A stretch of 62,199 bases of DNA, the filler included. It is 4 parts of 4 records of this genome, joined end to end, with 100 filler letters (N's around TTAATTAATTAA, not from the genome) between each part and the next. Parts side by side here need not be neighbours in the genome. Positions count along the whole stretch, not along the records: positions 17,906 to 30,325 come from SRR31156797_6225; 3 more parts are not named here. The stretch is one strand, 5' to 3'. Below are positions 1,713-57,199 of this stretch, one piece after another. The notes beneath the pieces are model-generated. The model worked only from the letters and a program-made list of their open reading frames with translations. It was not told the origin of the DNA and searched no databases. The position numbers were made by a program, and so were the translations under genes. Every line of letters starts with the position of its first letter. The first letter of the stretch is position 1.

Positions 1713-1740
1713 GCTTATTGAGTTTGCTATTAAATGTTAT

Positions 1741-3015: not shown

Positions 3016-3055
3016 ATTTCACATAGCAATATTAGACACTTAGTACAGGTGAGTA

Positions 3056-4351
3056 ATGAAGAGAAATTTGAAATGGTACAGACTGGACACGTCTGCAAAA
3101 ATATATCCTGCACTGGAATCAATACGCAATCCGGCGCTATTTCGGGTTAGTATATCATTAGATGAGGATGTCAATCCAGATATTTTACTCAAGGTGCTAA
3201 ATTCGGTTAAGGATCGTTTTCCATATTACAATGTTCATATGAAAAAAGGCTTGTTCTGGAATTATCTAGAACAGAATAAAAGCAGCTTAAGAGTATGGAA
3301 GGATGCGGTATCTCCATGCCAGAGAATTTATCCCATATTTAATCACGGTTATCTGTACAAAATTATGTACTATCGAAATAAAATCTCATTGGATATATTC
3401 CATGTCCTAACTGATGGCACTGGTGCTATTGAATTCTTGAAATGTATTGTTAATCAGTATTTGCTGGAGCGTGGATTAATTGATACGACGGAGGAAGGCA
3501 TTATTGATGCTTCAAAGAATCCAAGCGAAGAAGAAGAGCAAGATGGTTTTGTACAGCTTCTATATGCATACAAAGATGATATACCAAAGGAAAAGAAAAG
3601 AACGCTTATATCCAACAAGCATAATTTCATTATAAAGGACAAGCATCTGCCTCCAGGTAAGTACAAAGTGGTAACTGGAATAGTACAAATAGATGAAATA
3701 AAGATTCTTAGTAAGAAATATAATGCAACAATTACTCAGCTTCTGACTGCGCTGTATATGGATACTCTTATAGCTGAACAGAAAAAGCAGAATAAAAAAA
3801 GAGATAAAGTAAGAAATATAGCAATACAAATACCTGTAAATATGAGGAAGTATTATGATGTAAAGTGCATGAGGAATTTTTCACTTTTTGTTATTCCTGA
3901 GGTCAATCCCAAAAAGGCAAAGGGACTAAAGGATATTATCGAAGCTGTGAAGCAATTTATGTCTGAACATCTTACTATGGAGCATTTGTTAACAATGGCT
4001 GATGATAATAGCGTATTAGCATCAAATCCTTTTATCAAATACACACCTGTAGGATTAAAGAATATTATTATTCGGTTTTTTGCAAATACAAAGGGATCAA
4101 CTCAATTTTCTGGTACAATATCCAATCTTGGATTGATAAAATTACCCCAAAATGTATCAAAACATGTAAAAGATGTTGAATTTGTTTTGGGACCATCAAA
4201 TCATAACAAATGCTCATGTGCCGTTGCAGGATATGATGGTAAATTATATATTACGTTTGGCAGAAGTGTGAATGATGCAATAGTGTCAAGAGGAATGTTT
4301 GGCAGATTGGTTGAGATGGGTGTCGGCGTTGAGGTAAGAAGCAATTACTAA
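3056..4351 (+). CDS. Alcohol acetyltransferase / condensation-fold CoA-dependent acyltransferase
   Basis: HxxxDG catalytic motif (FHVLTDGTG), plus 'IPVNMR', 'MRNF' and 'SNLG', typical of Firmicute alcohol acetyltransferase-like proteins. Confidence 0.75.
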   Translation: MKRNLKWYRLDTSAKIYPALESIRNPALFRVSISLDEDVNPDILLKVLNSVKDRFPYYNVHMKKGLFWNYLEQNKSSLRVWKDAVSPCQRIYPIFNHGYLYKIMYYRNKISLDIFHVLTDGTGAIEFLKCIVNQYLLERGLIDTTEEGIIDASKNPSEEEEQDGFVQLLYAYKDDIPKEKKRTLISNKHNFIIKDKHLPPGKYKVVTGIVQIDEIKILSKKYNATITQLLTALYMDTLIAEQKKQNKKRDKVRNIAIQIPVNMRKYYDVKCMRNFSLFVIPEVNPKKAKGLKDIIEAVKQFMSEHLTMEHLLTMADDNSVLASNPFIKYTPVGLKNIIIRFFANTKGSTQFSGTISNLGLIKLPQNVSKHVKDVEFVLGPSNHNKCSCAVAGYDGKLYITFGRSVNDAIVSRGMFGRLVEMGVGVEVRSNY

Positions 4352-4366
4352 GTTAAAGGAGACAAT

Positions 4367-5245
4367 ATGTCATACTGTGTTGAATGCGGTGTAAAACTGG
4401 CAGATTATAATAAGGAATGTCCGTTATGCGGAACAGCGGTGATTAATCCTAATAAGAAAGTAAAAGTAAGAAATGATCACTATCCTAACTATGAGGTCGT
4501 TGAGCCAAATGAAAAAAAGATAGTCAATAGATATGTTACAGGACTGATACTTACAATACAGGTTTTGGTATATTCTACTATTTTGCTTGGTTTGAATTTA
4601 TTGATAGAGAAGAAAGTCAGCTGGTCAGTTATTCCGATATTATCTCTGGGACTTGTTTGGATTACTGTTGCATACCCATTTTTCAGGAAACGTAATTCAT
4701 TTTTCAGATTGTTTACATATGATTGTATTACAGTATCAGTATATTTGCTGAGTCTTAATTATGTAATATCTAGGAATTTTATTTGGTCTAAATTTGCATG
4801 TGTAGGTATTTTGTTCTTGTGGGTAATCATAGCAGGCATATTTTTGACCGAGAGGATTAGAAAAGCATTTCCTGTAACTATTTTTTACCTGCTGTCAGCG
4901 GTTATTCTGTCATTTGTCCTTCTTAGCTTCTTCAAAAACAGTGGTAATATTATGAGAATTGGTATTCCGATTATTGTAGTGTTTTTAGTTTTAGGTGTGA
5001 TATCCTATATCCTGATAAAATCCACAAAACATGCAAATACCGGACTTATTACTATATTGTTAGCGAATATTACAATCATGTGCCTTGCAATTGACTTTAT
5101 TACTCATTATTATTTGTATGATAAATTTACATTATCTTGGTCTGTAATAATATTGATTATGGCTGTTCCTGCAATAGTTACTTTGTTTTCCTTGAAAAGA
5201 GTAACTGAACTAAGGGCATATATTTCTAGGAAAATGCATAATTAG
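4367..5245 (+). CDS. Zinc-ribbon membrane protein (DUF6320-like)
   Basis: N-terminal CxxC...CPLC zinc ribbon followed by about 8 TM helices, with a short basic tail. Confidence 0.65.
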   Translation: MSYCVECGVKLADYNKECPLCGTAVINPNKKVKVRNDHYPNYEVVEPNEKKIVNRYVTGLILTIQVLVYSTILLGLNLLIEKKVSWSVIPILSLGLVWITVAYPFFRKRNSFFRLFTYDCITVSVYLLSLNYVISRNFIWSKFACVGILFLWVIIAGIFLTERIRKAFPVTIFYLLSAVILSFVLLSFFKNSGNIMRIGIPIIVVFLVLGVISYILIKSTKHANTGLITILLANITIMCLAIDFITHYYLYDKFTLSWSVIILIMAVPAIVTLFSLKRVTELRAYISRKMHN

Positions 5246-5347
5246 TTATTGTATATTATGTGGTAACGGAAGACTTATATCAGGAAATTTCTTTAAGTAT
5301 AGTAGTAATTAATCAGTAAAAACCAAACAATTATGTTATTGTGCATA

Positions 5348-5376
5348 TTGATTATTAATTTTTCATGTATTATAAT
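5348..5376 (+). promoter_or_regulatory. Sigma-70/SigA promoter of the cobalamin operon
   Basis: TTGATT-N17-TATAAT immediately upstream of the riboswitch. Confidence 0.65.
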
Positions 5377-5391
5377 GCCTACAATTGAATA

Positions 5392-5556
5392 GATTATTTA
5401 CGGTTATTAAAGAATATTAATAGGGAAATTGGTTAAAATCCAATACAGCCCCCGCTGCTGTGATGTGGAGATTTTATCATAGCTTAAGCTAAGCCACTGT
5501 TTATATGGGGAGGCGATAAAATTGATGAAGCGAAGTCAGAAGACCTATCGTAAGTT
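5392..5556 (+). ncRNA. Cobalamin (B12) riboswitch
   Basis: Conserved elements AATAGGGAA..GGT.AAAATCC..ACAGCCCCCGCTGCTGT, GCCACTG...GGGAGG and the B12 box AAGTCAGAAGACCT, upstream of cobalamin genes. Ends are approximate. Confidence 0.9.
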
Positions 5557-17805: not shown

Positions 17806-17905
17806 NNNNNNNNNNNNNNNNNNNNNNNNNNNNNNNNNNNNNNNNNNNNTTAATTAATTAANNNNNNNNNNNNNNNNNNNNNNNNNNNNNNNNNNNNNNN
17901 NNNNN
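17806..17905. other. Artificial contig linker
   Basis: 44 N + TTAATTAATTAA (stops in all six frames) + 44 N. Confidence 0.99.
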
Positions 17906-17934
17906 GACTGTCAGATCAAGTATGAACCACTACA
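17906..17934. mobile_element. Probable terminal inverted repeat of an IS (IS3-family-like) truncated by the contig break
   Basis: The reverse complement reads TGTAGTGGTTCATACTTGATCTGACAGTC, with a 5'-TG terminus resembling IS3-family ends. It lies at a contig edge and no transposase is visible. Confidence 0.4.
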
Positions 17935-17936
17935 AC

Positions 17937-18644
17937 TTAATCCTGAAATTCTTCAACCTTACCCTTTAAATCCTCAGAAAGAGCCATAGCCATTTTTGTA
18001 AAAGCGTCCAACTTTTTGATTCGCTCCAAAAGATTTTCCTTAGTTTCAGTATCACCAAAACGAGGCTTAAGTTCCTCACTTTCATCTTCAATAAATTTGA
18101 CTATTTTAAAATCTATCCCAGACCCTACCCCTGCATTTCTGGCTAGCTCAACCCATTCTTTGGACTGGTCTATGGCTGTACCCGCAGCCTGAACATACAA
18201 GGCATTGATGATCTGCTTTGCTGTATCATCAACACCATCAATCAACTCAAGCAATTCCTGGGTTTCATCATTCTCCGAAGAACTATCAATACTCTTCCGC
18301 ATGGCCTTATAGTAAAAATTACTCACATCTGGACTAAGACCTGCCAAATTTTCAGCAATTTTTTCAAATTCAACCATTGGTCTATGGGACTTATGCCACG
18401 AAAAACGATGCTCCCAAAGTTTTAAAATTGCATCAACACATTCTTTTTCAACGTTTAGACGTTCCTCTTCACCTGCACTTTCAACTCTCTCACTTAACTC
18501 AGCAATATAGTGAGCCATCCAACGCCCAAGAGTGTCATTACTCTCCTGCAGGCTAAACTCTTCAACTATTTTTTTACCAAGTTCCAAAATCTCCTGATGC
18601 CTGGTAGATTGTTCCGTCCGCTCTGAGCAGGATGATTCTGACAT
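17937..18644 (-). CDS. avs3b: Avs3b-like accessory protein of an AVAST type 3 anti-phage system
   Basis: Helical 235-aa protein with 'LGKKIVEE...DTLGRWMAHYIAEL...C.DAILKLWEHR'. It overlaps the 3' end of the large STAND gene by 71 nt. Confidence 0.75.
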   Translation of the reverse strand: MSESSCSERTEQSTRHQEILELGKKIVEEFSLQESNDTLGRWMAHYIAELSERVESAGEEERLNVEKECVDAILKLWEHRFSWHKSHRPMVEFEKIAENLAGLSPDVSNFYYKAMRKSIDSSSENDETQELLELIDGVDDTAKQIINALYVQAAGTAIDQSKEWVELARNAGVGSGIDFKIVKFIEDESEELKPRFGDTETKENLLERIKKLDAFTKMAMALSEDLKGKVEEFQD

Positions 18645-21600
18645 GTTTTCTCACCTCATTTTTTGAATAATCACGACTACTTCCAACTGTTTTTCTTACG
18701 AACACTTTACAGACTAAATCCATTTGCTGATCTTTCAAAAACTCACGCACAAAATCAGCCTTGGCCCAAAGCCTTCTTCCTTGTGACTGAGGAGCGTAAA
18801 CATAATAATTTTCTCGTTCGCTTTCAGGCTCATCGCACCAACTTTCATATTTCACAACAACTTCTTTTGACTCTTTACGCATCCACGCATTATCAGCCGG
18901 ATCCAAAGTTAATTTTTGGTTTAACTTGGTTCCAGGTAATACAGCTAACATACCAACTTCGTACCGCAAGGGGTCATGCTCATCAAATTTCAAATCATGA
19001 TTATTAAACCTAAGCCAACCAACAAACGAAAAAGGTAAGCTGTTTATAGCGAAAGACTCATCTTCAGCAGGAATTCCATAACTATAATGATTATCTGTTG
19101 ACTGTAGAGCTCTGACCAATGCAGGAGCTGTCTGTGGAGCAACTAAGGCAGTATTTATCTGTATTAAACACTCTCTATTTGGAGATTTAAAAGAATAATC
19201 AGCATTGATAGCTACCCACTCCTGAGATTCGTCGGCGGAAACACCTAAAAATTTAAAAAAATCATCATCTGAAGCTGTTTCAATCCACTCCTCATCCTCG
19301 TGAGGAGAAGGAAACCACAATTCACTCTCAAGAGGAGTTGCCCCTTTGTTATCGGAAATCCATCTATCAGGTTGTGACTGACGGCACTTTTCAAGCCATT
19401 CTTCAAAGCTGTAATAATAATCCTCATTCTTAAGAACTGAATGGGTTTGCAACAATTCACCGACTACGCAATGCATGGCATTCCATTCCAAATACCTTAC
19501 GTACACTTCTTTACGCGGATATGAGCCATGCCTATGATCTGTATATCTCCAATTTGGTCCTCGAAATCTGTTCTGTCGATTGTCTATAGCCCATCCATCG
19601 CCAGTCACTGGAGCTTGCCATTTATCAACAATCCAACTTTCAGCACTATTAAGAAAGTCTTCCTCAGTCACAGAAGGAAAAAGCGATAACGGAATATCAT
19701 ACCAATATTGCAAAGTATCAAGGGAATCAAAATGAAATCGCCTCCCTTTATTCGAGTCATGCCCAAATCCCCTACCATGATATGATTCTCCTTTAGACGT
19801 TCTTGCTATAGGAGAATTAACCTTATCTAGACTTTCATATTCAACAGCACTCAATTCAATAGCACCGACCTTATACAACTGCAGCAGTGTCCTTTTGGAA
19901 TACTCTCTTATTGCTACATGAGGCAGCTCTGATGATAATGCAAAATCTAACAGATCATTTTTAAATATGGAAAGATCCTCTGGAGTTTCGAAAGCAATCC
20001 TATGGAGCGAAATAACTAACCAAAGCTTAGCCGAAAGATGATAAAAAGGATTACCTGCCGCCAAAAAAGAGCCATCTGAATCTCTCGAATACTGAGCTAC
20101 CGTAGCCTTCAAAACGTCATGGCATCCAAGCCTTGCCAATTTCCTAAGAACATGAGCAGCTTCCCACCGAATATGCTTGTCGATATCCCCCATCATTACA
20201 AAAAGAAACCTTGCAACTGATTCAGTGACAGACTCGAAATCATTTAAAGACTCAGAGCAAAACCTGTCATCCTCAGGAATCTGCTTATGGATATGGCCCA
20301 AATACCATATAAACAGTTCATTGACCTCATCTGAATTGAGTTCTTGCACAAGCCTTCCGGCCAGCACAAAGAGCTGTCTGCTTGTCAAAGACTGCTTTGA
20401 ATTTATCAGGCTATCCCTAAAAACTTTAAAACGCCCATCGCTATCAAGCCCAGCCTTGTCGAGAAGATATAACCAACTTGAGTCACCATAATCCCACCAA
20501 GTATGATTCTCGAAAAATTTAACAAGGCCCTCTGGTAGACGGTCCATAATCCATTGTTGAACTGCAGGAGTCTTGCCCCACTCTTCAATAGCATTTCTAA
20601 ATAAATCGAGAACGGATTGTGCTTCAACATCATCAATTGGTAAATCAGCAACGGCATTAAGAAAAGCAGCACGGAAACGCGGCCCAGAAGAGCGAGTCAT
20701 CATTTCTGCAAGCAAACAGGACTCGAAAAGAGCGTCATCAAGATCAGACTTTCGGGCAATCTCTAAAACTTCAAGAATACGTTCAGCAGACGAAAAGTAT
20801 TTATCCTCAATTTCAAGTTTTGCCAGAGTCAATTCTTTTCTATCTGAGCCATACGACAAATGCCTAGCATCGTCTCTTGTATTTTTTTTACTATCACCAT
20901 GTTTATCTAAAAAATCGATGGTTTGCTCAAGCCGATCTCCCCACCGCCCCTTTGAACTTGAACTTTCGAGATATTGACTCAAAATCTCACGCCCAAAATC
21001 ATGTCTAGTGTTTTGCGGGCGATACAATAAGGTATCTTTCGCCATCTCTTCCAACAGCGGGCCCAGGCTATCTTCTTTGTCATGTGAACCGGATACTATT
21101 TCATCTCTCAACTCACTGGAGCACCCCCCGAAAAAAGTAGATAAACTATAGGCCAATTCTGGAGTTATTTTCTTTAGCTGAAGTGCTACAGAAATCCACT
21201 CAGGTAGGGTAAAACCAATTGAAACAACTCCACGGTCAGACCACCGTGATATGGCAGCAAGTGAGTAGACAATATTTATAGTTGATAATGTACGTGCAAA
21301 ATCCTCCCACGGTAAACGGTCAAGATAATCTGAGATATGACCAACAATATCAGCGAAATTGTCGCATAACACGGCACTGTCTTTAAGGTTATTAATCTTC
21401 GCATAAAGCGAAGCGGTTCCTAAAAAATTAACTTGGTCTAAGATTTCAGTATCAATACCACTGGCCATTTCCATGGATTCTTTAAAAAATATTTCTGCAT
21501 CATCCGGACTGGTGGGTAATAACAGCCAAGCAAGCTGCAGCCCTGATGCCATTTTATCGGAAACAACTTCCTTGTTCGTTTTAATTGTTTCAAAACACTT

Positions 21601-24600
21601 AGAGGACACATCTAAAACGTCTTCATACTCATCGACACGAAGAGCCATCAGAGGTATCAAATTCATACATTTAGTAACGGAATGACCTTCACACTTGATT
21701 CCTAGAATATCCTTGCATCTGCCAAAGAGCTCTACCCCTTTAAGCTCCTTCACACACAACAGACGCATTACACTTTGGGCTGCTTTTTCAGTTATACGCG
21801 AAGTCTCATAATCTCTATCCGGCCAATATCCAATTAAAGAAACCATTCCTTCCAAGGAATCTGAATCTATCGTTTCTCCAGATCTAAACTTCCGTAAAAT
21901 GTCCACCCGTCTTACATATATTGGGGTCACTCCACCAATGAATCTTTTTAATTCTTCAAAATCCGAAGATTGGTAACTTTGTTTTTGGTCATCTTCCGAG
22001 TCAGGCTTAAAAATGACCAGCCTATCATCAAAATTATCTTTACGTTTTTCATGCCCCCTAATGATATCACTCAAAAGCCAACACCTAATGAGTGCGTCTA
22101 TTCTAGGTATCTCTGATTTAAACAATCTATTTTTGAGAGCGGTCATTTTTTTTAAAATACGCTCAACGACCTGCAAAACAACTCCGGTATCCACCCCAAA
22201 AGCGTAAGCCTGTTCGCAAGCCAAAATAAAAACATCCAGTAAATCAGCTTTCCATGACATTCCATTGGACGACCACATATTATCAATATCAGGAATGGTG
22301 ATTGCGGATACTCTTCGCAAAGAGCTCTGAAGAATCTCCGGAGCTATATCTTCCCCGGCCATTAGCAAATTAACAATGAGCACTAAATCCCAAGGTTTCG
22401 GAACAATGCCACTATCAAGCAACTCTTTTAGTTCAAAAGCCTTGCCACTTGCGATAAGCCTTGGAACCAAAGAGATGGCAACCTTTAACTTCACATACAC
22501 AGGTCGCCATCGCATAAGGTAATGAAAAGCTTTAGCTGTTCCGCCCAACTCCAAAACAGTTTCGGTCAAGGCCGCAATATCATTATCTGTAATCGACCAA
22601 TTATTCCTTACTCCATCCGAGTCTGCATGTTTTCTCCTGCTATCCAACCACAATTCATAATAATGTAATTTTTCCCTTGCTAGAGCAGTTCTCCCCCTTC
22701 TTGCTTGCCTCAACGCCTCATGAGCTAAAAAAGATCCATGCTTATGGGCTAACTCGGAATCCATAAGCACTTTTCTATGAACAGAGTCATAAGCAAACTC
22801 CACTGAAAGTCCGAGATGTTCATCAAGCACCCGACTGATCATGCTGTCGCTATAGGTCGCCTGGGCACTGTGGAGAACAGTTTTTATTACATCAACTTTT
22901 GACCCTGAATTCTTATGCGAATGAAGTGACAATCTCATTCTATTTAACTGTATTTGATAAGACTCGACAGGATCAGTAACCGCTGAAATTTGGGGATCAT
23001 CCTCAAGTAGACCCAAAATTTCAGTAGCCCTATTAGCTTTAACCAAAAAATCAGCAATATGAACAGCACTGTATGAGCTATCTTTATTGGTTTTCAAAAA
23101 ATGACTTGCGGACTTTTCAATAATCTTCTGCCGATTAACAACTCCTCTGGTTCCTATAAAATCGGCATAATCTTCGTCAGCAATCGTGATGCTGTCTTCG
23201 CGAATTATCAAGCCGGGAGCGAGATCTGAAACAATGTCTTTGATCTCTCCTTTAGTAACTTCAAGCACCTCCGCTATTGCCTCCAATTCTATTGGAGCAG
23301 GAAGAACTGAAAGAGCTGAAACAAAATCATCAAAAATATCGGGCCGCCCCATCCTTTTCAAAGCTGTCTCAAAAATGGAATCAAACACATCATCCAGCCC
23401 CTTCCCCTTTGGCATAAGAGGAATCAAAAGATCTTCGAGTCCTTCCGAATATTCAAGCGCATAACCTTGAACCCGCGGCACTCCATTTGAAAGGAGATGC
23501 AATTGCTCAGCAAGCAACTGATCTGCCTCTGGATAGGATAGACTTAAATTTTCAACCGTCTCTTCCAATGAAAACGGTAGGCATTCTATCTCCACCCCAT
23601 TCTTAGGAAAAGAAATCAGATCTCTGCGGGCAGTTCTGCATGAAACGATAAATCTTATGTTCGCTGGAAGACGTTCCAAATTCGCTTTTAAAAAATCGTA
23701 AATAAACGGTTGCTCAGGCGGATCACAAAATTTAGCAGCAGCAACAGAATTATCTACTGCATCAATCATTATCGTGAGTGTCTTTTTAGGATCGACCTCA
23801 TGCAGTATATTACTAGCTATTTCAAGTTGATCAATAAACCTACTTATATCAAATGGGTATTTACTATTCCTCGGAAACTGAAGGGGTAAATTCAGACATA
23901 CAGAAACATCATTAACTATCTGCAAAAAAGCTTTCTTAGCCAAATGTCTCTTATCATCGGCATAAACATAACTCCCCCCGCCGAAACAGTCATAAATGAC
24001 CGAATATGAGTCCTCCATCGCAGCAGCGGCTTGCTGCAAAAGAGTTGTCTTTCCGCACCCTCCATCCCCATGGACAAGAATAAGTTTCTGGCCTTCATTA
24101 AGCGCGACTAGCAAATCATTTAGTGCTGCCCGTCCAACAACCAACCCTAAAGGTTTGAGAACTGGCTTACACGGGAAAAGCCCTTTTTCATCCCTTACAC
24201 CTAACCAAGACATTATAGTGGTTCTGGTAGCAACTCTTTGACTCTCAGGAAGCATCATTTCACGGGTATTCATATGAAGCTGCTTCATTTCCTGAAGAAA
24301 ATCGTCCCCAAGCTGATCGGCGAGAGATCCTAACACCTTCTCTTTATAAGCAAACCTTGAGTTTTTCCCACACTCACTAAAATCAAGGACCTTGAGGAAA
24401 TTCATAAATGCTTTTTTGCCAAGCCCAGAACCCTTTCGAAGCTTTTCATAATTAACACTGTCTTCTTCCGAACGAACTGAAATATCCCTGAAATTTAATA
24501 CTGCTCTAATGTCTTTAGCGGCCTGCTGATTGCTTACCAGCTGAATCCTTATATTCTCTACATCAATAGACTTGATAGCTTCTTTAAAATCATTTGCCAT

Positions 24601-24924
24601 TTTCCGAATTACGGAATTATTTTTACTTGTAGCAGAGCTGTCCACTAGTCGAGCAACAGACCATTTTCCTGCCGGGTTAGATGCTGAATATTTAAGCTGA
24701 ATAAACTCAACTTTATATGACGACTCTAGACTTTGCCCTCCATAGTAAAGCGTACAATCAACTCCAGCCCAATCGTGATCAGAGTTCTTGTCTGTCTCAA
24801 CACCTTCAACTCCCACCGCAGTCAGTTGCGTATTAGGTTGAAGAAGCTCTAGAATTTTAAGAAGAGCAAAAAGTTCATGATATTGGTCACCAGTATTTGA
24901 TCCGAGAGCACCTGAGTATTCCAT
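18574..24924 (-). CDS. avs3a: Avs3a-like anti-phage STAND NTPase with an N-terminal PD-(D/E)xK (Cap4-like) nuclease and a long helical sensor region
   Basis: 2116 aa. N-terminal 'GDQYH...D...QLKYS' nuclease, Walker A GDGGCGKTT, 'YDCFGGG', Walker B IDAVDN and 'SNGVPRVQ'. The size and the downstream small partner match Avs3. Confidence 0.8.
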   Translation of the reverse strand: MEYSGALGSNTGDQYHELFALLKILELLQPNTQLTAVGVEGVETDKNSDHDWAGVDCTLYYGGQSLESSYKVEFIQLKYSASNPAGKWSVARLVDSSATSKNNSVIRKMANDFKEAIKSIDVENIRIQLVSNQQAAKDIRAVLNFRDISVRSEEDSVNYEKLRKGSGLGKKAFMNFLKVLDFSECGKNSRFAYKEKVLGSLADQLGDDFLQEMKQLHMNTREMMLPESQRVATRTTIMSWLGVRDEKGLFPCKPVLKPLGLVVGRAALNDLLVALNEGQKLILVHGDGGCGKTTLLQQAAAAMEDSYSVIYDCFGGGSYVYADDKRHLAKKAFLQIVNDVSVCLNLPLQFPRNSKYPFDISRFIDQLEIASNILHEVDPKKTLTIMIDAVDNSVAAAKFCDPPEQPFIYDFLKANLERLPANIRFIVSCRTARRDLISFPKNGVEIECLPFSLEETVENLSLSYPEADQLLAEQLHLLSNGVPRVQGYALEYSEGLEDLLIPLMPKGKGLDDVFDSIFETALKRMGRPDIFDDFVSALSVLPAPIELEAIAEVLEVTKGEIKDIVSDLAPGLIIREDSITIADEDYADFIGTRGVVNRQKIIEKSASHFLKTNKDSSYSAVHIADFLVKANRATEILGLLEDDPQISAVTDPVESYQIQLNRMRLSLHSHKNSGSKVDVIKTVLHSAQATYSDSMISRVLDEHLGLSVEFAYDSVHRKVLMDSELAHKHGSFLAHEALRQARRGRTALAREKLHYYELWLDSRRKHADSDGVRNNWSITDNDIAALTETVLELGGTAKAFHYLMRWRPVYVKLKVAISLVPRLIASGKAFELKELLDSGIVPKPWDLVLIVNLLMAGEDIAPEILQSSLRRVSAITIPDIDNMWSSNGMSWKADLLDVFILACEQAYAFGVDTGVVLQVVERILKKMTALKNRLFKSEIPRIDALIRCWLLSDIIRGHEKRKDNFDDRLVIFKPDSEDDQKQSYQSSDFEELKRFIGGVTPIYVRRVDILRKFRSGETIDSDSLEGMVSLIGYWPDRDYETSRITEKAAQSVMRLLCVKELKGVELFGRCKDILGIKCEGHSVTKCMNLIPLMALRVDEYEDVLDVSSKCFETIKTNKEVVSDKMASGLQLAWLLLPTSPDDAEIFFKESMEMASGIDTEILDQVNFLGTASLYAKINNLKDSAVLCDNFADIVGHISDYLDRLPWEDFARTLSTINIVYSLAAISRWSDRGVVSIGFTLPEWISVALQLKKITPELAYSLSTFFGGCSSELRDEIVSGSHDKEDSLGPLLEEMAKDTLLYRPQNTRHDFGREILSQYLESSSSKGRWGDRLEQTIDFLDKHGDSKKNTRDDARHLSYGSDRKELTLAKLEIEDKYFSSAERILEVLEIARKSDLDDALFESCLLAEMMTRSSGPRFRAAFLNAVADLPIDDVEAQSVLDLFRNAIEEWGKTPAVQQWIMDRLPEGLVKFFENHTWWDYGDSSWLYLLDKAGLDSDGRFKVFRDSLINSKQSLTSRQLFVLAGRLVQELNSDEVNELFIWYLGHIHKQIPEDDRFCSESLNDFESVTESVARFLFVMMGDIDKHIRWEAAHVLRKLARLGCHDVLKATVAQYSRDSDGSFLAAGNPFYHLSAKLWLVISLHRIAFETPEDLSIFKNDLLDFALSSELPHVAIREYSKRTLLQLYKVGAIELSAVEYESLDKVNSPIARTSKGESYHGRGFGHDSNKGRRFHFDSLDTLQYWYDIPLSLFPSVTEEDFLNSAESWIVDKWQAPVTGDGWAIDNRQNRFRGPNWRYTDHRHGSYPRKEVYVRYLEWNAMHCVVGELLQTHSVLKNEDYYYSFEEWLEKCRQSQPDRWISDNKGATPLESELWFPSPHEDEEWIETASDDDFFKFLGVSADESQEWVAINADYSFKSPNRECLIQINTALVAPQTAPALVRALQSTDNHYSYGIPAEDESFAINSLPFSFVGWLRFNNHDLKFDEHDPLRYEVGMLAVLPGTKLNQKLTLDPADNAWMRKESKEVVVKYESWCDEPESERENYYVYAPQSQGRRLWAKADFVREFLKDQQMDLVCKVFVRKTVGSSRDYSKNEVRKHVRIILLRADGTIYQASGDFGTW

Positions 24925-24982
24925 TGCTAATTAACCCACTAGCTACAATTAAACTTAAAAAACACACTATCCATTTATATTA

Positions 24983-25831
24983 TCAAATCACATATGCTAA
25001 TGGCCCATTTAAACTTATAAAACCTCTAACATCGTTCAACTCAATCGGTACAATTATAGATCCCTCTGCTCCACATGCAACTTCATATTCAGAAAAACAA
25101 AGATACAAATAAGCTCCCTCATAGTAATACTTCTGATCATCTTCAACTGTATCAAAGTGATCCGCTATCCCCTTATCTTTGAACCACCTTTTGACTAGCT
25201 GATTAATTTTATCTTTATACCCCGACCTGAAAAGATCTTTAAATTCAACAATTTCACCATTATCAACATTCAAATTTACACACTCCAAAATATTGGCAGC
25301 CCCTCCAGCTCCATGTCCATAATAAGTACCCTCTGCAACAACACTTAAGAACATATCATCAACGGAAGCCTTCGCAATTATCATAGTTAGATCTTCTGTA
25401 CCGTCATACCTATCATGAGCACCTACGACTTCCTTAATAAGCCCATTGATCTTCTTTTCAACAATTTTATTATTTAACCCAGTTAATTGTATATAATCTA
25501 TGTTTATCGTTGCAACCTCAACATTAGTACCTGGGTTATTATCCGGAATCCTTCTTTCAAAACGATATTTTAATATTTTAGGACTTTCTTTACTTAAAGA
25601 AACACAATCTCTTGTATTATAAGAGACAAATTTATCTGTTATAAACAAAAACAAAACTACAAAAGTAAATAAATACATTGTGTGCATATATATTTTATAT
25701 GACTGTTCCTTATCAAAAGAAGCATGACCTTTATACTTAATTACACAGATCCCCAAAGAATAAACAGATACAACACACAGTCCGACAAACCCAGCTTTAG
25801 ACAAAATCATTTCAATAAAAGCAGAATTCAC
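24983..25831 (-). CDS. Two-TM membrane protein with a C-terminal RsiV/PdaC-like (DUF4163/DUF3298) domain
   Basis: Two hydrophobic helices in aa ~10-65. The C-terminus has 'IDYIQL....VEKKING', 'YYGHGAGG', 'NLNVDNGEIVEFKDLF' and 'LCFSEYEVACGAEG.I.VPI', which resemble DUF3298/RsiV. Confidence 0.6.
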   Translation of the reverse strand: MNSAFIEMILSKAGFVGLCVVSVYSLGICVIKYKGHASFDKEQSYKIYMHTMYLFTFVVLFLFITDKFVSYNTRDCVSLSKESPKILKYRFERRIPDNNPGTNVEVATINIDYIQLTGLNNKIVEKKINGLIKEVVGAHDRYDGTEDLTMIIAKASVDDMFLSVVAEGTYYGHGAGGAANILECVNLNVDNGEIVEFKDLFRSGYKDKINQLVKRWFKDKGIADHFDTVEDDQKYYYEGAYLYLCFSEYEVACGAEGSIIVPIELNDVRGFISLNGPLAYVI

Positions 25832-26048
25832 ACTAACGTCCTTAAATATTTACAAACAGCTCTCAAAAAAACACAATTCAACTACTATTACGATAACTTA
25901 CACACATAAGATAAAGAAATTGCGTTCAAATCACAAACTCAAATTTTTATGAAATTCATAGCCAATAAAGGTGACATTACTACCAAAGACGCTTAAATCA
26001 TAAAAAAACAATTATCTAAAAGTCAAAACCATATAACAATAAATATCA

Positions 26049-29000
26049 ATGCAAGACATCTTCGACATCACAGAAAAAGAAATCCAAGAGTTAACTGACT
26101 CAGACCTTCGCACACTCATTGGCCTTCTTTGCGAGGCAGAACTTGAACGTAACAACCTCCCAGTAACCGCTGCTAAGTGGGGTGGAAACCAACGCGCCGC
26201 TGATGGTGGCCTTGATGTCTATGTCGATCTGGAAAATCCAACGGAAGCAATAGGAGAAATCCCACGCTGGAAGACGGGCATTCAGGTCAAGCAAGAAAAA
26301 ATGCCTAGAAATAAAATCATTAAGGAAATGTGCCCAAAAGGCATTCCTCGTGCTGTTCTTACCGAACTCGCATCAAATAATGGTGCTTATTTAATAGCTT
26401 GCGGCAAGGAATCGACCTCACCGCCTATGCGAAAAGACAGACTAGAGGCTATGCATGAAGCTTGCAAAACCGTTCCGGGAATAAAGAACCTTAAACTGGA
26501 TTTTTTCGATAGCAGTAATATCAAATCATGGACCCGCAAACATCCCAGCCTAGTTTTATGGGTCAAGGCAAACCTAGGAACAAACTCTAGTGGATGGCAA
26601 CCACATGACAACTGGTCAGAATGTCCTGATGGAATATACGGGAAGTTCATTTTAGATGATTCATCCAAGATCTACGATGATCGCAGTAAAGACACAGACG
26701 GATTATCGGCAGAGGACGGACTAAACAGGATCAGAACGCTTCTGCATGAAGAGCGTAGCTGCATCCGGCTTGCAGGACTATCAGGTGTTGGTAAAACCAG
26801 ATTTGCTCAAGCTCTTTATGACGAACGCATTGGACAAAATCCCCTTCCAAAATCAATCGCCTGTTATACAGACATTGCTCATAGCCCATCCCCCACTCCG
26901 CGAGACATGGCTTTACAATTAATAGCCCTGAATAAAAGAGCTATCCTAATAGTGGATAACTGCCCGCCGGATTTGCACGATGAACTCAGCAAAGTTTGCA
27001 CCCGTGCTGATAGCAAAATAAGCCTGCTAACCGTTGAATACGATATTCGTGATGACAAGCCAGAACGGACAGATGTGTTTCGTATGGAACCGTCTTCCAA
27101 CGATCTCATTGAAAAACTTATTTCAAGCAGATTCAAGGACATCAATAATCTTGAAGCCAGACGAATAGCAGAATTTTCTGAAGGCAATGCTCGCATAGCA
27201 ATCGCTCTCGCTGAGACATTTGAAAAAGGCGATGCAATCCTTACTCTTGAAAACAACGAACTTTTCAAACGTCTCTTCCATCAGCGCAATACTGAAGATG
27301 ATAGTTTGATGCGAGCTGCTGAAGTCCTCTCACTTGTCTACTCATTCGATGGTGAAACGCTTGGCCCTCCGGAAAGTGAACTTGATAGACTGGCTGAACT
27401 GGCTGGCATGCCCGCTATGGAATTGTATCGCCACGTTGCAACTCTCCTAAAAAGAGGTTTAGCGCAGAAACGCTCAAAATGGCGTGCAGTACTTCCGCAT
27501 GCAATTGCCAACAGACTTGCTAAGCAGGCACTGGAGAATATACCTACACAATTGATTAAAAATGCTTTCGACAGAGATGAATCAGGAAGATTGATTAAGT
27601 CGTATACAAGAAGGTTGGGATATCTTCATGACTGCGAAGCCGCACAAAAGATCGTTAAGGGATGGCTACAGCCGGATAGTTGGCTTGGAAATATTTCAAA
27701 ACTGAACGAATTCGGAATTACATTACTTATTAATATTGCTCCTGCCGCTCAAGAAGAAACTCTTGAAGCAATAGAGCGTGCTGCCGATGGCTCAGAAGAA
27801 GCAACATTTGCGTCCAAACAAAACCCACACTACATTGAAATTACAAGATTACTCCAAAAGATAGCGTACGAGCCACACTTATTTAAACGCAGCTGCCTGA
27901 TTCTTTTGAAATTTGCAACGACCGAAAAGCCTAATGACAACTACAATTCGATCAAAGATCTAACATCATCACTATTTTACCTTAAACTATCAGGAACTCA
28001 TGCAAATGTTGACCAGCGTTTAGAAATTTTATCCGAGTGTATTGCCAAAGGATCGCTATTCTCTTCCATGGCAATACCAATATTAAATGGACTACTCCAA
28101 TCTAACTCTTTTACTTCAGGTGCTAGTTTCGAATTCGGAGCAAGACCTAGGGATTACGGATACCTCCCTAAGACATGGGGAGAAGTTACTAAATGGTATA
28201 GCACATCAATAATTTTCATTAAAAACGCAATCCTGAACAACTCTGAGTTTGCAGATGACTTTAAAGTCGTATTAGCAGACCACTTTAGATCGCTTTGGAC
28301 AAATGCAAACGCCATAGATGAACTTGAAAAAACTGCGATCGCAATCAACGACAAAAGATTCTGGAAAGAGGGCTGGATAGCCATACGTAGAACAATTTTT
28401 TATGACAGAAAAGAATTGCACCAAGAGTCGCTGTCGCGACTACTAGAACTTGAGAAAAGAATCTCAGCTAAAGACCTATTTGAAGAAGCTCAGATCTACG
28501 CACTCACGGAAAGATGGGGAGCTCTCGACTCACTTGAATATGAAGATGGAAAATCTCGTGATTTAGAACACGTAACAGAGCATACCCTCGAATTAGCTCA
28601 AAAAACGGCCATAAATATAGATGTTCTTCAGAAACTGCTTCCCAGCTTAGTATCGACGCACGGCAATACATCAACGTTCGGTCAGGGACTTGCTGTAGGA
28701 TGCTCCACACCTGACCTGATATGGAATCTACTTTTAAACGCTTCAGCAGATATTCAAAAAGAAAAAAGGGAGTATGCTATTTTTCTTGGATTCCTAAATG
28801 GAATGCGTAGCCGAGACGTACAGTGGTTTAACTCAAAACTAGATCACATAGTAAACGACAACATTCTTGCCCCATACTTCCCTAGTATCCAGTGTAACTT
28901 TGAAAATGATCAAAAAGCAGCAAGACGACTATTTGAAGCTTTAGAATTAAACATAGCTGCAACTTGGCAATATAATAGAATTTGGGCACTTGAAATTGAT

Positions 29001-29831
29001 AATTTAACCTTTGCAAATCTACTATCAAGAGTAATGGCAACCCCAGAAGGTACTAAAATTGCCATGGATATACTTGGGATGAGATTTTTCCACAAAAAGA
29101 AAAGCCACTTGGACTATCCGTTGCAAGCTCTCGGACGAAATCTTTGCATAGAATTATGTGAAATACAGATCAACGACAATGCTGCTTACCACATGGATAA
29201 AATAATCCAAAAATGCTTTGCATCTCACTCTTCGACTCCTAAGGCCAAAGAGTTCTGTCATAAAATAATAAAAAAATCAGAAGAAAACATAGCGGCAGCG
29301 TACCATTTGGAATCAACAATTGCTTCTCTAATAAAAGTTCAGCCCAAAACAGTACTAACCGAACTGCTACTCAACTATGAAAATGGAATTAGGTATTTTT
29401 CATGGAGAACTCACCATGAAAAAACTACAATCGATTTAGCACCATTAGAATCTGTAACTGAATGGTGTGAAGTTGACCCGTCGATACGCTATCCCTTGGT
29501 GACTCAAATAACACCACTTTTCGTTGAAAACCATGATGGCCGAGTAGAATCAATGTCTTCTGTAGCAATGATGCTGCTGGATAGATCAAAAGACTATCCT
29601 GAAATACTAGAATCCATTACGCCACACTTCTATCCAACCACGGGCTGGTCTGGTGAACTTTCAATTGTAGCTGCCACACGAATTCCCTTTTTGGAACAGC
29701 TAAAGGAGCATCAACATCAGTGTGTACGAAACTGGGCAAACGAACAACTAGCTGAATTAAAAAGACGCATTGCACGTCAAAAAATTGCTGAAGAAAAAGA
29801 AGCTAGAGCGAGACACGAATCCTTCGAGTAA
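26049..29831 (+). CDS. Putative anti-phage NLR-like protein: restriction-endonuclease-like N-terminus, STAND NTPase, alpha-helical C-terminal region
   Basis: 1260 aa. 'ADGGLDV...IQVK' Mrr/REase-type motif, Walker A GLSGVGKTR, Walker B LIVDNC, 'SEGNARIA' (GxP-equivalent), 'RAVLPHAIA', a long helical tail and a C-terminal 'GWSGE'. Confidence 0.7.
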   Translation: MQDIFDITEKEIQELTDSDLRTLIGLLCEAELERNNLPVTAAKWGGNQRAADGGLDVYVDLENPTEAIGEIPRWKTGIQVKQEKMPRNKIIKEMCPKGIPRAVLTELASNNGAYLIACGKESTSPPMRKDRLEAMHEACKTVPGIKNLKLDFFDSSNIKSWTRKHPSLVLWVKANLGTNSSGWQPHDNWSECPDGIYGKFILDDSSKIYDDRSKDTDGLSAEDGLNRIRTLLHEERSCIRLAGLSGVGKTRFAQALYDERIGQNPLPKSIACYTDIAHSPSPTPRDMALQLIALNKRAILIVDNCPPDLHDELSKVCTRADSKISLLTVEYDIRDDKPERTDVFRMEPSSNDLIEKLISSRFKDINNLEARRIAEFSEGNARIAIALAETFEKGDAILTLENNELFKRLFHQRNTEDDSLMRAAEVLSLVYSFDGETLGPPESELDRLAELAGMPAMELYRHVATLLKRGLAQKRSKWRAVLPHAIANRLAKQALENIPTQLIKNAFDRDESGRLIKSYTRRLGYLHDCEAAQKIVKGWLQPDSWLGNISKLNEFGITLLINIAPAAQEETLEAIERAADGSEEATFASKQNPHYIEITRLLQKIAYEPHLFKRSCLILLKFATTEKPNDNYNSIKDLTSSLFYLKLSGTHANVDQRLEILSECIAKGSLFSSMAIPILNGLLQSNSFTSGASFEFGARPRDYGYLPKTWGEVTKWYSTSIIFIKNAILNNSEFADDFKVVLADHFRSLWTNANAIDELEKTAIAINDKRFWKEGWIAIRRTIFYDRKELHQESLSRLLELEKRISAKDLFEEAQIYALTERWGALDSLEYEDGKSRDLEHVTEHTLELAQKTAINIDVLQKLLPSLVSTHGNTSTFGQGLAVGCSTPDLIWNLLLNASADIQKEKREYAIFLGFLNGMRSRDVQWFNSKLDHIVNDNILAPYFPSIQCNFENDQKAARRLFEALELNIAATWQYNRIWALEIDNLTFANLLSRVMATPEGTKIAMDILGMRFFHKKKSHLDYPLQALGRNLCIELCEIQINDNAAYHMDKIIQKCFASHSSTPKAKEFCHKIIKKSEENIAAAYHLESTIASLIKVQPKTVLTELLLNYENGIRYFSWRTHHEKTTIDLAPLESVTEWCEVDPSIRYPLVTQITPLFVENHDGRVESMSSVAMMLLDRSKDYPEILESITPHFYPTTGWSGELSIVAATRIPFLEQLKEHQHQCVRNWANEQLAELKRRIARQKIAEEKEARARHESFE

Positions 29832-29875
29832 GCATCCGGGAAACTAAGAAGGAGACGTACAACAGCCTCATAAAG

Positions 29876-30154
29876 CTACCAGATACGACTATCAACTCTC
29901 TCAACAAGAGCCTTTAATTTTTCATCTCCATATGAAAACCTATTGCAATCGTAAACATAGTAAAGCCCTCCGCTGTTCGGGACATCCTCATGACTAAGGT
30001 GAGGAGCAACATCTTCATACGGTTTCAGTCTAGCAATTACAGTATGGCCATGCCGCTCAGCGATTGTTTTGGTTCCTGCTAAAATAGCAACACCATGCTC
30101 AACGACAGAATCAACTGCATCATAAATATTATCACTCTCTCTAAAAATTTTCAT
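29876..30154 (-). CDS. Hypothetical protein (about 92 aa; the ORF track extends it to 30247)
   Basis: Open frame. ATG 30154 (MKIFRES) is preceded by a purine-rich GGGGGAAA. No recognisable motif. Confidence 0.45.
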   Translation of the reverse strand: MKIFRESDNIYDAVDSVVEHGVAILAGTKTIAERHGHTVIARLKPYEDVAPHLSHEDVPNSGGLYYVYDCNRFSYGDEKLKALVERVDSRIW

Positions 30155-30255
30155 AGCCAAATTTCCCCCATAAAGTTCAAAATATTTATTCCTAGAAACT
30201 AAAAAGACGACATACTCATCCTTACCCTCACACATCCTCACTAACAATCATCGAA

Positions 30256-30277
30256 AAAGTGGTGGGAAAGTGGTGGG
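30256..30277. repeat. Perfect 11-bp tandem direct repeat, possible integrase arm-type sites
   Basis: AAAGTGGTGGG twice, at 30256-30266 and 30267-30277. Confidence 0.6.
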
Positions 30278-30286
30278 ATTTTGCAG

Positions 30287-30325
30287 AAAAAGAAAAAGCC
30301 TCACAAAGAAAAATCTTCGTAAGGC
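30287..30325 (-). terminator. Rho-independent terminator of a minus-strand gene (possibly a tRNA) lying beyond the contig end
   Basis: Minus strand GCCTTACGAAGA-TTTT-TCTTTGTGAGGC-TTTTTCTTTT: a 12-bp stem with two G-U pairs and a U-tract. Confidence 0.65.
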
Positions 30326-30425
30326 NNNNNNNNNNNNNNNNNNNNNNNNNNNNNNNNNNNNNNNNNNNNTTAATTAATTAANNNNNNNNNNNNNNNNNNN
30401 NNNNNNNNNNNNNNNNNNNNNNNNN
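30326..30425. other. Artificial contig linker
   Basis: 44 N + TTAATTAATTAA + 44 N. Confidence 0.99.
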
Positions 30426-54008: not shown

Positions 54009-54108
54009 NNNNNNNNNNNNNNNNNNNNNNNNNNNNNNNNNNNNNNNNNNNNTTAATTAATTAANNNNNNNNNNNNNNNNNNNNNNNNNNNNNNNNNNNN
54101 NNNNNNNN
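54009..54108. other. Artificial contig linker
   Basis: 44 N + TTAATTAATTAA + 44 N. Confidence 0.99.
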
Positions 54109-55300
54109 CGTTCATGATAAAATTGGTCATCATCATGATGAAAAAGGCAATGCTCATGACAAAAACAAACCAATGGGATTCCTTGAATATAGCCAGCCAG
54201 TTGATGGCCAGCCATTCTGCCGCCCCTGTTTCCCAGAGGCAGAATCCGATACTCATGGCACCGCCGAAAAGCAGCATGATATTCCAGGGCACTGTTTCAA
54301 GATCTTTTATATCCAGCAGACGGAAGACAAAAAACAGGATGGTGGACACCAGGATGATGCCGTTTTTATCGAGAGCGTCTAAGGCAGGAATAAATTGTTT
54401 AATGGACATGATAAAAATGCAGGAAAAAATAATAACGCCGGCTATAATCTCATCCCGGGTGATCTTGCCCATGGCCTTATTTAGTTTTTTTGCTTTTTCC
54501 CGAAGTCCAGGGATGGTCTTTTGTTCCGGCTTGAAAAACACCATGAAAAATCCCCACAAAATAAAAGTCATGGCCCATCCAATGGGAAACATATAAAAGG
54601 TCAGCTCAAAAAAACTGACATCCCGGCCTACGATGTCTGAATAAAACCCCAGAGCAACGGCACCCCTGGCAGCCCCTAACAAAGTAACAATACTGCCTGC
54701 ACCGGCAACAAAGGCCATTCCCATGAATAGCCCCTTCCCGAATTTACTGGGTTTGTCATCCTCGGAATACATGGCATAGATGGTCATGAGCAAAGGAAAC
54801 ATGGTTGCCGCCACTGCCGTGTGAGCCATGATATGGGTGAGGGCGGCTGTTACCACAAAACAGCCCAGATAGATCATGCTTGTTTTTTCCCCCACTATGA
54901 TCAGCATTTTATATGCAAGCCGTTTGGTAAGGCCTGTCTTGGTAAACACCATACCAATGACAAGGGAGGCAAAAATAAAGAGCACCGAGGGGGTCATGAA
55001 GTCTGTGAAGGCTTTGGATGCCGGCCGGATCATGAATAACACCTGCAATACGCCGATGGTAAGGCTGGTCACACCGATGGGAACCACTTCAAAAATCCAC
55101 CAGGTTCCAGCCAGAAGAAAGACCGCCAGGGCTCCCTTTGCTTGCTGGCTGAGGATAAAATGTTTGCCGCTGGGATCAACGGCATCGGGCCAGGGCGGAG
55201 AAAAGTTTACAACTGCGAACAGGATAACGCCTGTCAGCAGAAACAAGATTCGTTTCCAGTCAATCTGAGTTTTATGAAGATCAATGCTTTGAGTAGTCAT
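54109..55300 (-). CDS. SLC13/DASS family anion:sodium symporter, 3'-truncated by the contig end
   Basis: 'WWIFEVVPIGVT', 'TGLTKRLA', 'MAHTAVAATMFP' and 'VPWNIMLLFGGAMSIG'. The frame runs into the linker. Confidence 0.88.
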
Positions 55301-55321
55301 TATTATTTTTAGCTCCTGTAA

Positions 55322-57179: not shown

Positions 57180-57199
57180 ATATAGATCGGGATACAGGC

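Follow-up and report, generated by a model that had tools for sequence, protein, structure and literature searches.

A probable orthologue of the STAND receptor Avs8A (PD-lambda-4A) beside Avs3 in a Maridesulfovibrio-like deltaproteobacterium

The Avs8A-like gene and its genomic setting

The window analysed here, a stretch of 62,199 nucleotides, consists of four contigs linked by artificial joiners (Table 1), and the genuine context of the gene under study is the contig at positions 17906-30325 only, the other parts being unrelated Bacteroidales contigs. This 12.4 kb contig shows about 90% DNA identity to a Maridesulfovibrio genome and carries an open reading frame of 1260 aa with an ATG start and zero internal stops. 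The gene had been described as lying next to Avs3, and both Avs3a and Avs3b were indeed found on the same contig, with one gene for a DUF3298 protein between Avs3a and the 1260-aa gene. Among the Maridesulfovibrio relatives, tRNA-Arg(CCT) adjoins Avs8A in loci L004 and L006, and in L004 and L005 the gene is found among Wadjet (JetA), Lamassu-like, Nsn and AbiE genes together with an integrase. The gene and Avs3 share a defence-island setting, and in the Maridesulfovibrio relatives a tRNA-Arg hotspot is close by.

Table 1. Positions of genes, domains, motifs and joiners in the window; residue counts refer to an alignment of 122 family sequences.
Feature	Position	Strand	Basis
Artificial contig joiner N44-TTAATTAATTAA-N44	17806..17905		sequence
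Avs3b	17937..18644	-	PADLOC Avs3b E=1e-58; NCBIfam NF041817 204.5 bits, cut-off 200
Avs3a, 2116 aa	18574..24924	-	PADLOC Avs3a E=1e-191, 637.7 bits
DUF3298 protein, Avs3a-Avs8A interval	24983..25831	-	Pfam DUF3298 E=1.6e-8; 95.7% identical same-place protein in L005
Avs8A-like gene, 1260 aa plus stop	26049..29831	+	ORF; PADLOC PD-Lambda-4_A; E. coli Avs8A alignment
N-terminal candidate Mrr-type PD-(D/E)xK nuclease domain, aa 1-195	26049..26633	+	motif, AF2 model, atlas features
DGGLD motif, aa 52-56 (D52, D56)	26202..26216	+	D52, D56 each 120/122
IQVKQ, aa 78-82, with QxK motif (Q79, K81)	26280..26294	+	Q79 121/122, K81 119/122
STAND NTPase module, about aa 196-545	26634..27683	+	Foldseek, VIA-align
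Walker A GLSGVGKT, aa 243-250 (K249)	26775..26798	+	K249 121/122
Walker B LIVDNC, aa 300-305 (D303)	26946..26963	+	D303 122/122
Family signature EYDIRDDKP, after the strand following Walker B	27036..27062	+	E330, D332 122/122; R334 111/122
Predicted alpha-solenoid sensor, aa 546-1223	27684..29717	+	AF2 all-helical; PADLOC C-terminal models
Most variable sensor stretch among close alleles, aa 661-1080	28029..29288	+	allele identities; blastn
Conserved loop FEFGARPRDYGY in sensor	28128..28163	+	F696, R701, G704 122/122; G697 121/122; non-helical insert
GWSG motif, aa 1199-1202	29643..29654	+	P1196 121/122, W1200 115/122, G1202 112/122
Long C-terminal helix, aa 1224-1260	29718..29828	+	helix 684-719 of sensor model
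Small convergent ORF, probably about 92 aa from ATG at 30154	29876..30247	-	no Pfam, PADLOC, NCBIfam or atlas match
Artificial contig joiner N44-TTAATTAATTAA-N44	30326..30425		sequence
Artificial contig joiner N44-TTAATTAATTAA-N44	54009..54108		sequence

Family assignment and protein modules

The earlier note had regarded the gene as unassigned and as a candidate new Avs/NLR-like family, naming a strong full-length hit to an already characterised family as the result that removes the novelty. When the PADLOC check that it asked for was run, the PD-Lambda-4_A model (PDLC03991) matched strongly over the full length (E=0, 1016.3 bits, aa 4-1260 on profile positions 3-1283 of 1283), and BLASTP against E. 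coli WP_000963924.1 gave a single alignment spanning aa 4-1222, with 411/1249 identical residues (33%) and 637 bits. This accession corresponds to the Avs8A of ECOR07, according to the annotated E. coli record checked against the accession list provided with bioRxiv 10.1101/2025.07.02.662641; on the same model, E. coli Avs8A scores 2531.7 bits and an Enterobacter plasmid copy 1764.1 bits. The novelty claim therefore falls: on the strength of these alignments, the 1260-aa gene is intact and belongs to Avs8 (PD-lambda-4), a family already described together with its trigger and effector activity, and not to a new one. Relatives of equal length share 77-86% identity, which points to purifying selection.

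Other resources were silent on the whole protein. The Avs1-5 models of PADLOC 2.0 gave no match at E<=0.01 (the neighbouring genes did match Avs3a and Avs3b), the sole Pfam match, RapZ-like_N, scored 16.1 bits where the cut-off is 25.4, the Pfam STAND models remaining below significance, NCBIfam returned zero matches, and a PDB sequence search gave none at E<=0.01; likewise, zero homologues were found in 50,697 phage genome records. Close relatives in NCBI and JGI, among the matches listed, are all named 'hypothetical protein' or 'ATP-binding protein'. With Pfam and NCBIfam silent and such names uninformative, genes of this kind keep looking new unless PADLOC-type models are used.

The tripartite motif layout noticed earlier was recovered in full within the intact frame, where DGGLD, QxK, Walker A, Walker B and GWSG were all located, and the near-invariance of their residues across the 122 aligned sequences (including G54 of DGGLD, conserved in 120/122) argues that they are not due to chance. 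In the nuclease region, D52, G54, D56, Q79, K81 and E93 were recorded as invariant. The AF2 model of the N-terminal part (mean pLDDT 83.9) predicts here helix 17-34, strands 42-44, 57-60 and 75-81, helix 87-94 and strand 113-118, a helix-strand-strand-strand-helix-strand order in which D56 precedes strand 2 and QxK lies inside strand 3. A feature search of the atlas retrieved Mrr_cat clusters (0.92/0.91, 19/30 matches) with shared-feature counts of 159 and 156, below the 170 typical of same-family pairs. A profile of the nuclease domain found chance-level matches only among PDB sequences (E>=0.05), and Pfam searches of 22 nuclease domains at E<=10 found no family common to more than 5 members, with one DUF4365 match at E=0.011. 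An Mrr-type nuclease is consistent with the motif, the predicted topology, the sub-typical atlas match and the preprint statement that Avs8 is an Mrr-nuclease/STAND/helical-sensor protein (10.1101/2025.07.02.662641; 10.64898/2026.01.04.697583). With this family description agrees the previous reading of a single gene encoding a nuclease effector, a STAND NTPase and a helical sensor.

For the central module, the top Foldseek matches of the N-terminal model were Avs4 (8dgf_A, E 3.6e-8), CED-4, Avs3 (8dgc_A), NRC3, Apaf-1 and STAND-TPR 6mfv, and alignments of 350-700 columns were obtained with Avs4, CED-4, Apaf-1, plant NLRs, MalT and the STAND-TPR protein. VIA-align placed the same model with generic AAA+/ORC-type NTPases (Z about 10-11) over aa 180-407 and, dominated as it is by these, is therefore uninformative on the nuclease head. 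Conserved Walker A and B motifs, these long alignments to proteins with an NBD, a helical/winged-helix part and a repeat sensor in that order, and the predicted solenoid sensor place the protein in the STAND superfamily.

The C-terminal part had been described as about 750 aa of helical repeats, which was right within about 30 aa as judged from an AF2 model of aa 541-1260 (mean pLDDT 88.1), predicted to be nearly all alpha-helical with about 40 helices. Two PADLOC C-terminal models match this part of the protein (PDLC03990, aa 345-1260, E=9e-131; PDLC03989, aa 843-1260, E=1.2e-10). When the sensor was searched by itself, 638 cluster representatives came up at E<=1e-30; most of the 150 best of these are proteins of about 1250-1290 aa whose sensor begins around residue 540. 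Foldseek searches of the sensor model returned weak HEAT-like matches (SF3B1, karyopherins, E about 1e-3), with 1/500 at E<=0.001, and solved Avs sensors were not among the matches listed. Taken together, the profile matches and the model indicate a helical sensor homologous to that of Avs8.

Sensor variation and relation to known Avs receptors

Sequence conservation is unevenly distributed along the protein. Across the 122 family sequences it stands at about 0.7 in the front half, but past aa 720 it is down to 0.43-0.58. Measured in 60-aa blocks, identity to E. coli Avs8A is 15-35% beyond aa 660, with values of 15-25% for the blocks of aa 901-1200. Among the Maridesulfovibrio alleles, aa 1-540 are mostly 73-100% identical, less so over aa 61-180, a second variable block inside the nuclease domain, whereas aa 661-1080 of the same alleles are only 25-46% identical, with sharp block boundaries; blastn against L005 found no match between contig positions 10296 and 11009. 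Given such strong divergence of the sensor even among Maridesulfovibrio alleles, specificity could differ. That sensor cassettes are exchanged by recombination at the tRNA-Arg hotspot, resulting in a strain-specific capsid range or in a non-capsid trigger for this allele, is a speculative and rather unlikely extension of this pattern. The mosaic alleles provide natural material for mapping the parts of the sensor that govern capsid specificity.

The Avs8A of E. coli ECOR07 (WP_000963924.1) belongs to the same length class (1283 vs 1260 aa), is collinear with the present protein over 1249 aa, and shares the D...QxK nuclease motif of a candidate Mrr-type domain, Walker A/B and the helical sensor; it differs in overall identity (33%) and over most of the sensor (15-35%), in the presence of Avs8B, and in its host, an enterobacterium as opposed to the Maridesulfovibrio-like deltaproteobacterium of this contig, for which the capsid trigger is putative. 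Avs4 (EcAvs4, PDB 8DGF) came first in the Foldseek search with the N-terminal 560 aa (E 3.6e-8, 619 columns) and has the same order of nuclease, STAND NTPase and helical sensor, but it is a protein of about 1540 aa, a portal sensor according to its entry title, and the PADLOC Avs4 model was not matched at E<=0.01. Avs3, found in the same island, likewise couples a STAND NTPase to a PD-(D/E)xK-type nuclease at the N terminus, yet it has a Cap4/LmuA-like nuclease head, an Avs3b partner and a separate PADLOC family, and its solved structure (PDB 8DGC) is a complex with phage terminase. Avs7 and Avs10 are reported to have helical sensors that wrap the HK97-fold capsid protein (10.64898/2026.01.04.697583); they are nonetheless set apart by their descriptions as structurally distinct sensor families, Avs7 further having a Cap4 nuclease and using EF-Tu.

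Proposed activity and alternative readings

The name PD-lambda-4 comes from Vassallo et al. 2022, as cited in 10.1101/2025.07.02.662641 and 10.64898/2026.01.04.697583, and the E. coli system was first defined as a two-gene operon (bioRxiv 10.1101/2025.07.02.662641). According to the latter preprint, E. coli Avs8A alone provides defence against lambda, Avs8B being dispensable; the protein binds lambda gpE (KD 127 nM) and the Bas21 capsid protein (KD 14 nM), requires capsid protein, Mg and ATP to degrade dsDNA, loses defence when its nuclease active site is mutated, and recognises by their fold capsid proteins of <15% identity (10.1101/2025.07.02.662641). Capsid sensing by Avs8 (PD-lambda-4), with the receptor wrapped around the HK97 fold, was reported independently (10.64898/2026.01.04.697583). 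The published HK97-fold major capsid protein trigger agrees with the expectation of the earlier note that the receptor responds to something other than the triggers of Avs1-4, and its proposal of a phage-protein receptor leading to DNA degradation holds for the published Avs8 family, remaining an extrapolation for the 1260-aa orthologue.

We consider it likely that the protein is orthologous to Avs8A (PD-lambda-4A) and works by itself as an antiviral STAND receptor with a nuclease that, by analogy with E. coli, would be triggered by capsid protein. The capsid trigger, oligomerisation, DNase activity and protection would follow those of the E. coli homologue: late in infection, the C-terminal alpha-solenoid would bind monomeric HK97-fold major capsid protein, which may free Avs8A from autoinhibition and let the NTPase bind or use ATP; the protein would then oligomerise, E. 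coli Avs8A being predicted to form tetramers, and the candidate Mrr-type PD-(D/E)xK nuclease would degrade phage and host dsDNA, aborting the infection.

The divergence of the sensor invites a different reading, in which the same proposed STAND-gated Mrr nuclease serves an Avs8 receptor whose diverged sensor recognises a non-capsid protein or a narrow capsid lineage. The low identity to E. coli over aa 901-1200, the drop in family conservation beyond aa 720 and the contrast between similar front halves and dissimilar aa 661-1080 in Maridesulfovibrio alleles would all accord with it. However, collinearity with E. coli Avs8A holds along the entire sensor as far as aa 1222, both C-terminal PADLOC models still match, a number of sensor residues do not vary within the family, and fold recognition by E. 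coli Avs8A, as reported, tolerates capsid proteins of very low identity; we regard this reading as improbable.

A stand-alone Avs8A organisation was observed at this locus, with no adjacent Avs8B: tblastn with E. coli Avs8B against the window gave a best E of 3.8, and at E<=1e-3 only 10/58 genome loci had Avs8B beside them, the record titles of these 10 all being those of enterobacteria. Loss of Avs8B at the contig end was considered and rejected, because Avs8A is followed by an unrelated gene and Avs8B is missing from the syntenic L005 as well. Since Avs8B is dispensable in E. coli and accompanies so few loci, its lack is not disqualifying. The same two facts weigh against the idea of a two-gene system in which a partner not yet recognised, for instance the small convergent ORF, takes an Avs8B-like role. 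This idea is in keeping with the original operon definition, and two of the three Maridesulfovibrio loci (L005 and L006) keep the ORF downstream of Avs8A. The ORF is nevertheless absent from L004, has no match in Pfam, PADLOC (E<=1), NCBIfam or the atlas, and, being convergent, is not co-transcribed with Avs8A, so that a system of this kind appears very unlikely. Equally slight is the chance of an inactive or non-defence STAND protein, be it a decaying copy or a regulator: although a scan for promoters and terminators around the gene did no better than shuffles for promoters (11 found vs 9.5 +/- 3.2), the open frame is full-length, no catalytic or nucleotide-binding residue has been lost, and both the same-length relatives and the defence-island setting argue against this reading.

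For the favoured reading as an Avs8A orthologue, the contribution to discovery is small, because family, trigger and effector activity were already described, and the value lies in annotation, by extending Avs8 to sulfate-reducer-type deltaproteobacteria. HK97-type capsid genes of PF05065 were found in 0/3 related genomes, which counts against the capsid trigger, and the lambda-E-type PF03864 in 1/3; in the latter genome, that of the closest relative, a prophage head module includes a capsid gene of the lambda-E family, and this kind of trigger therefore exists in the host group. The island on the present contig would pair a terminase sensor (Avs3) with a putative capsid sensor (Avs8).

Assignment to the Avs8 family

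The protein studied had been taken in an earlier note for an unassigned protein of a candidate new Avs/NLR-like family. This is not borne out, as the PADLOC profile PD-Lambda-4_A (PDLC03991) matches it over its full length in a single stretch (aa 4-1260, profile 3-1283 of 1283; E=0, 1016.3 bits), and the protein is collinear with E. coli Avs8A over 1249 aa; two C-terminal PADLOC sub-models match it too (E=9e-131 and E=1.2e-10). Pfam and NCBIfam yield no usable match, which accounts for the difficulty in placing the protein. The experimentally studied Avs8A was reached through a plasmid homologue in Enterobacter mori and from there E. coli chromosomes, a partial DNA match being present in 176 of 5426 genomes; in NZ_CP009050.1 the Avs8A gene is annotated as WP_000963924.1, followed by WP_000443183.1, which are the accessions of ECOR07 Avs8A and Avs8B (bioRxiv 10.1101/2025.07.02.662641). 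By BLASTP, 411/1249 residues (33%; 637 bits) are identical to WP_000963924.1, and a single alignment runs collinearly through aa 4-1222. Judged by sequence, the protein is thus a further member of the already described Avs8 (PD-lambda-4) family: the architecture and mode of action proposed for it agree with those published for the family, and its novelty does not hold, given the end-to-end PADLOC match.

In a word-indexed search, 3490 of 8000 scored candidates reached E<=0.001. The best 120 of these measure 980-1286 aa, nearly all span 100% of the query, and their source names, where given, are 'hypothetical protein'. A sensor-only search recovered 1988 cluster representatives at E<=0.001 (638 at E<=1e-30), the sensor starting mostly near residue 540 in proteins of about 1250-1290 aa among the matches listed. 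Homologues were present on 43 plasmid records, and none was found in the phage records searched. Avs8B was not found in the window (tblastn best E 3.8; the ORF downstream of Avs8A has no PADLOC match), and it adjoins only 10 of 58 genome loci (tblastn E<=1e-3), all Enterobacterales by record title and one a 28-residue fragment; therefore, stand-alone Avs8A is the common form. The E. coli locus L003 also carries, divergent to Avs8A, a 1248-aa 'hypothetical protein' (WP_000871159.1; 1787-5533, - strand) with no PADLOC match at E<=1.

Domain architecture and proposed mechanism

All motifs listed in the earlier note were located: DGGLD at aa 52-56, Q79-x-K81, the Walker A motif GLSGVGKT at aa 243-250, the Walker B motif LIVDNC at aa 300-305 and GWSG at aa 1199-1202. 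When residues 1-560 were aligned with 38 homologues taken from genome loci, D52, G54, D56, Q79, K81 and E93 were invariant, and conservation was also seen in the Walker A block (G243-K249), at D303 and in the signature E330-P338. Of 122 sequences (E. coli Avs8A, the window protein and the 120 homologues listed), 120 retain D52 and D56, 121 retain Q79, 119 retain K81, 121 retain K249 and all 122 retain D303. The N-terminal model (pLDDT 83.9) displays the order of secondary structures expected for a PD-(D/E)xK core, with D56 immediately preceding the second strand and QxK within the third, and its best Foldseek matches were Avs4 (8dgf_A, E 3.6e-8), CED-4, Avs3, NRC3, Apaf-1 and other STAND or ORC-type NTPases. 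By sequence, the nuclease head had no significant match in Pfam or PDB; a language-model feature search returned Mrr_cat clusters (0.92 and 0.91; 19/30 hits), but fewer shared features than this tool normally gives within one family. The Mrr fold, stated for the family in print, is therefore putative for this protein. The helical C-terminal region anticipated earlier was recovered when aa 541-1260 were modelled with AlphaFold2 from a 36-sequence alignment: the model contains ~40 helices (mean pLDDT 88.1) and matches solved structures only weakly, as HEAT-like solenoids (Foldseek E about 1e-3). Two strongly conserved family signatures were observed: EYDIRDDKP, after the strand following Walker B (window 27036-27062), and the FEFGARPRDYGY loop within the sensor (window 28128-28163).

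Avs8, the new name of PD-lambda-4, is described as an Mrr nuclease plus P-loop NTPase (Avs8A), which alone protects against lambda, Avs8B being dispensable; Avs8A binds lambda gpE (KD 127 nM) and the Bas21 capsid protein (KD 14 nM), degrades linear dsDNA in a reaction requiring capsid protein, Mg and ATP, loses defence when its nuclease active site is mutated, and is not activated by assembled virions (bioRxiv 10.1101/2025.07.02.662641). A second preprint counts Avs8 among three capsid-sensing STAND families, its sensor target being the penton/hexon-forming face of the capsid A-domain (bioRxiv 10.64898/2026.01.04.697583). Beyond these two, a full-text literature search for 'Avs8' returned no relevant study except a mention in an Avs2 preprint. 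The system name is cited through the preprints because a term search did not find it in the main text of Vassallo et al. 2022 (PMC9519451).

On the best-supported reading, which borrows its trigger, oligomeric state and activity from the E. coli protein, the solenoid sensor would bind a capsid monomer, the STAND module would be activated in an ATP-dependent manner and oligomerise, and the putative Mrr-type head would cut dsDNA non-specifically, leading to abortive infection. What is established for the window protein comprises only family membership, residue conservation, folds and context. The closest relative genome carries a lambda-E-family capsid gene inside a prophage head module.

Source contig and defence hotspot

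Neighbourhoods are not readable across the joins, since the window consists of four joined contigs (GC 0.343, 0.401, 0.355 and 0.449, in order) rather than continuous DNA. The second, the 12,420-bp Avs contig, aligns to the Maridesulfovibrio MAG L005 with 89.8% identity over 10,279 nt and 82.9% over 1,242 nt, and shares with it the gene order Avs3b, Avs3a, DUF3298, Avs8A, small ORF; the closest three proteins among the matches listed are all from Maridesulfovibrio (86, 77 and 61% identical). Contig 30426-54008 had essentially no DNA match to Maridesulfovibrio genomes; it encodes an AcrB-type pump 80% identical to a Salinivirgaceae protein, its other named matches are Bacteroidales/Bacteroidota, and it contains T9SS sorting domains. 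Contig 54109-62199 reached only 66-74% identity to Maridesulfovibrio genomes. For these reasons, a Maridesulfovibrio-like organism is the most likely origin of the Avs contig, which would have been binned or joined with contigs unrelated to it. The pieces look like different organisms, and a mixed bin is the probable source.

Features of the Avs8A locus, the window and related loci (window coordinates unless a locus is named)
Feature	Position	Strand	Remarks
Avs contig	17906-30325		
Joiners	17806-17905, 30326-30425, 54009-54108		identical, N44-TTAATTAATTAA-N44; window = four contigs
Avs3b	17937-18644	-	NCBIfam 204.5 bits, cut-off 200
Avs3a	18574-24924	-	PADLOC E=1e-191
DUF3298 gene			Pfam; single gene separating Avs3 from Avs8A
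Avs8A ORF	26049-29831	+	ATG start, 1260 codons, stop-free
Variable nuclease-domain block	26229-26588		aa 61-180
Variable block, most of sensor	28029-29288		aa 661-1080
Small convergent ORF	29876-30247	-	probably about 92 aa, ATG at 30154
tRNA-Arg(CCT)	L004 13923-13999; L006 15300-15376		directly beside Avs8A locus

The Avs3 neighbour previously noticed corresponds to Avs3a and Avs3b on the same contig (PADLOC, NCBIfam). The small ORF, with no family match in Pfam, PADLOC, NCBIfam or the atlas, is kept downstream of Avs8A in 2 of 3 Maridesulfovibrio loci (82-89% identity). Avs8A, present in one copy in each of three related genomes, occupies a variable defence hotspot in these Maridesulfovibrio relatives: in L004 it is preceded by JetA, an nSTAND3 protein and a Lamassu-like/ABC-3C set, with the tRNA directly downstream, whereas in L005 NsnB/NsnC and Avs3 lie upstream, and AbiEii/AbiEi and an integrase downstream. 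The tRNA-Arg(CCT) in L004 and L006, against AbiE and an integrase beyond the gene in L005, suggests an integration hotspot, and the Avs contig ends approximately just before the expected tRNA start. The L004 nSTAND3 protein (1264 aa; 1647-5441, - strand) combines a Pfam nSTAND3 NTPase with an N-terminus that weakly resembles LmuA, and may represent a further STAND defence gene not yet characterised.

Allelic mosaicism

The window protein was compared in 60-aa blocks with the same-genus alleles P0004-P0007 and L006. Identity was mostly 73-100% over aa 1-540, with 56-76% at aa 61-180, and fell to 25-46% over aa 661-1080. Against L005, aa 1-480 were 93-98% identical, aa 661-1080 were 33-58% identical and aa 1081-1260 were 73-96% identical, and blastn of the Avs contig gave no match to L005 at contig positions 10296-11009. 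This mosaic fits diversification or exchange of the sensor, as expected of a receptor in an arms race. The Avs8 homologues P0002 and P0006, which share 86% and 60% identity with the window protein, are both recorded with a longest contig of 4,583,681 bp and may therefore be two alleles with different sensors in one Maridesulfovibrio genome.
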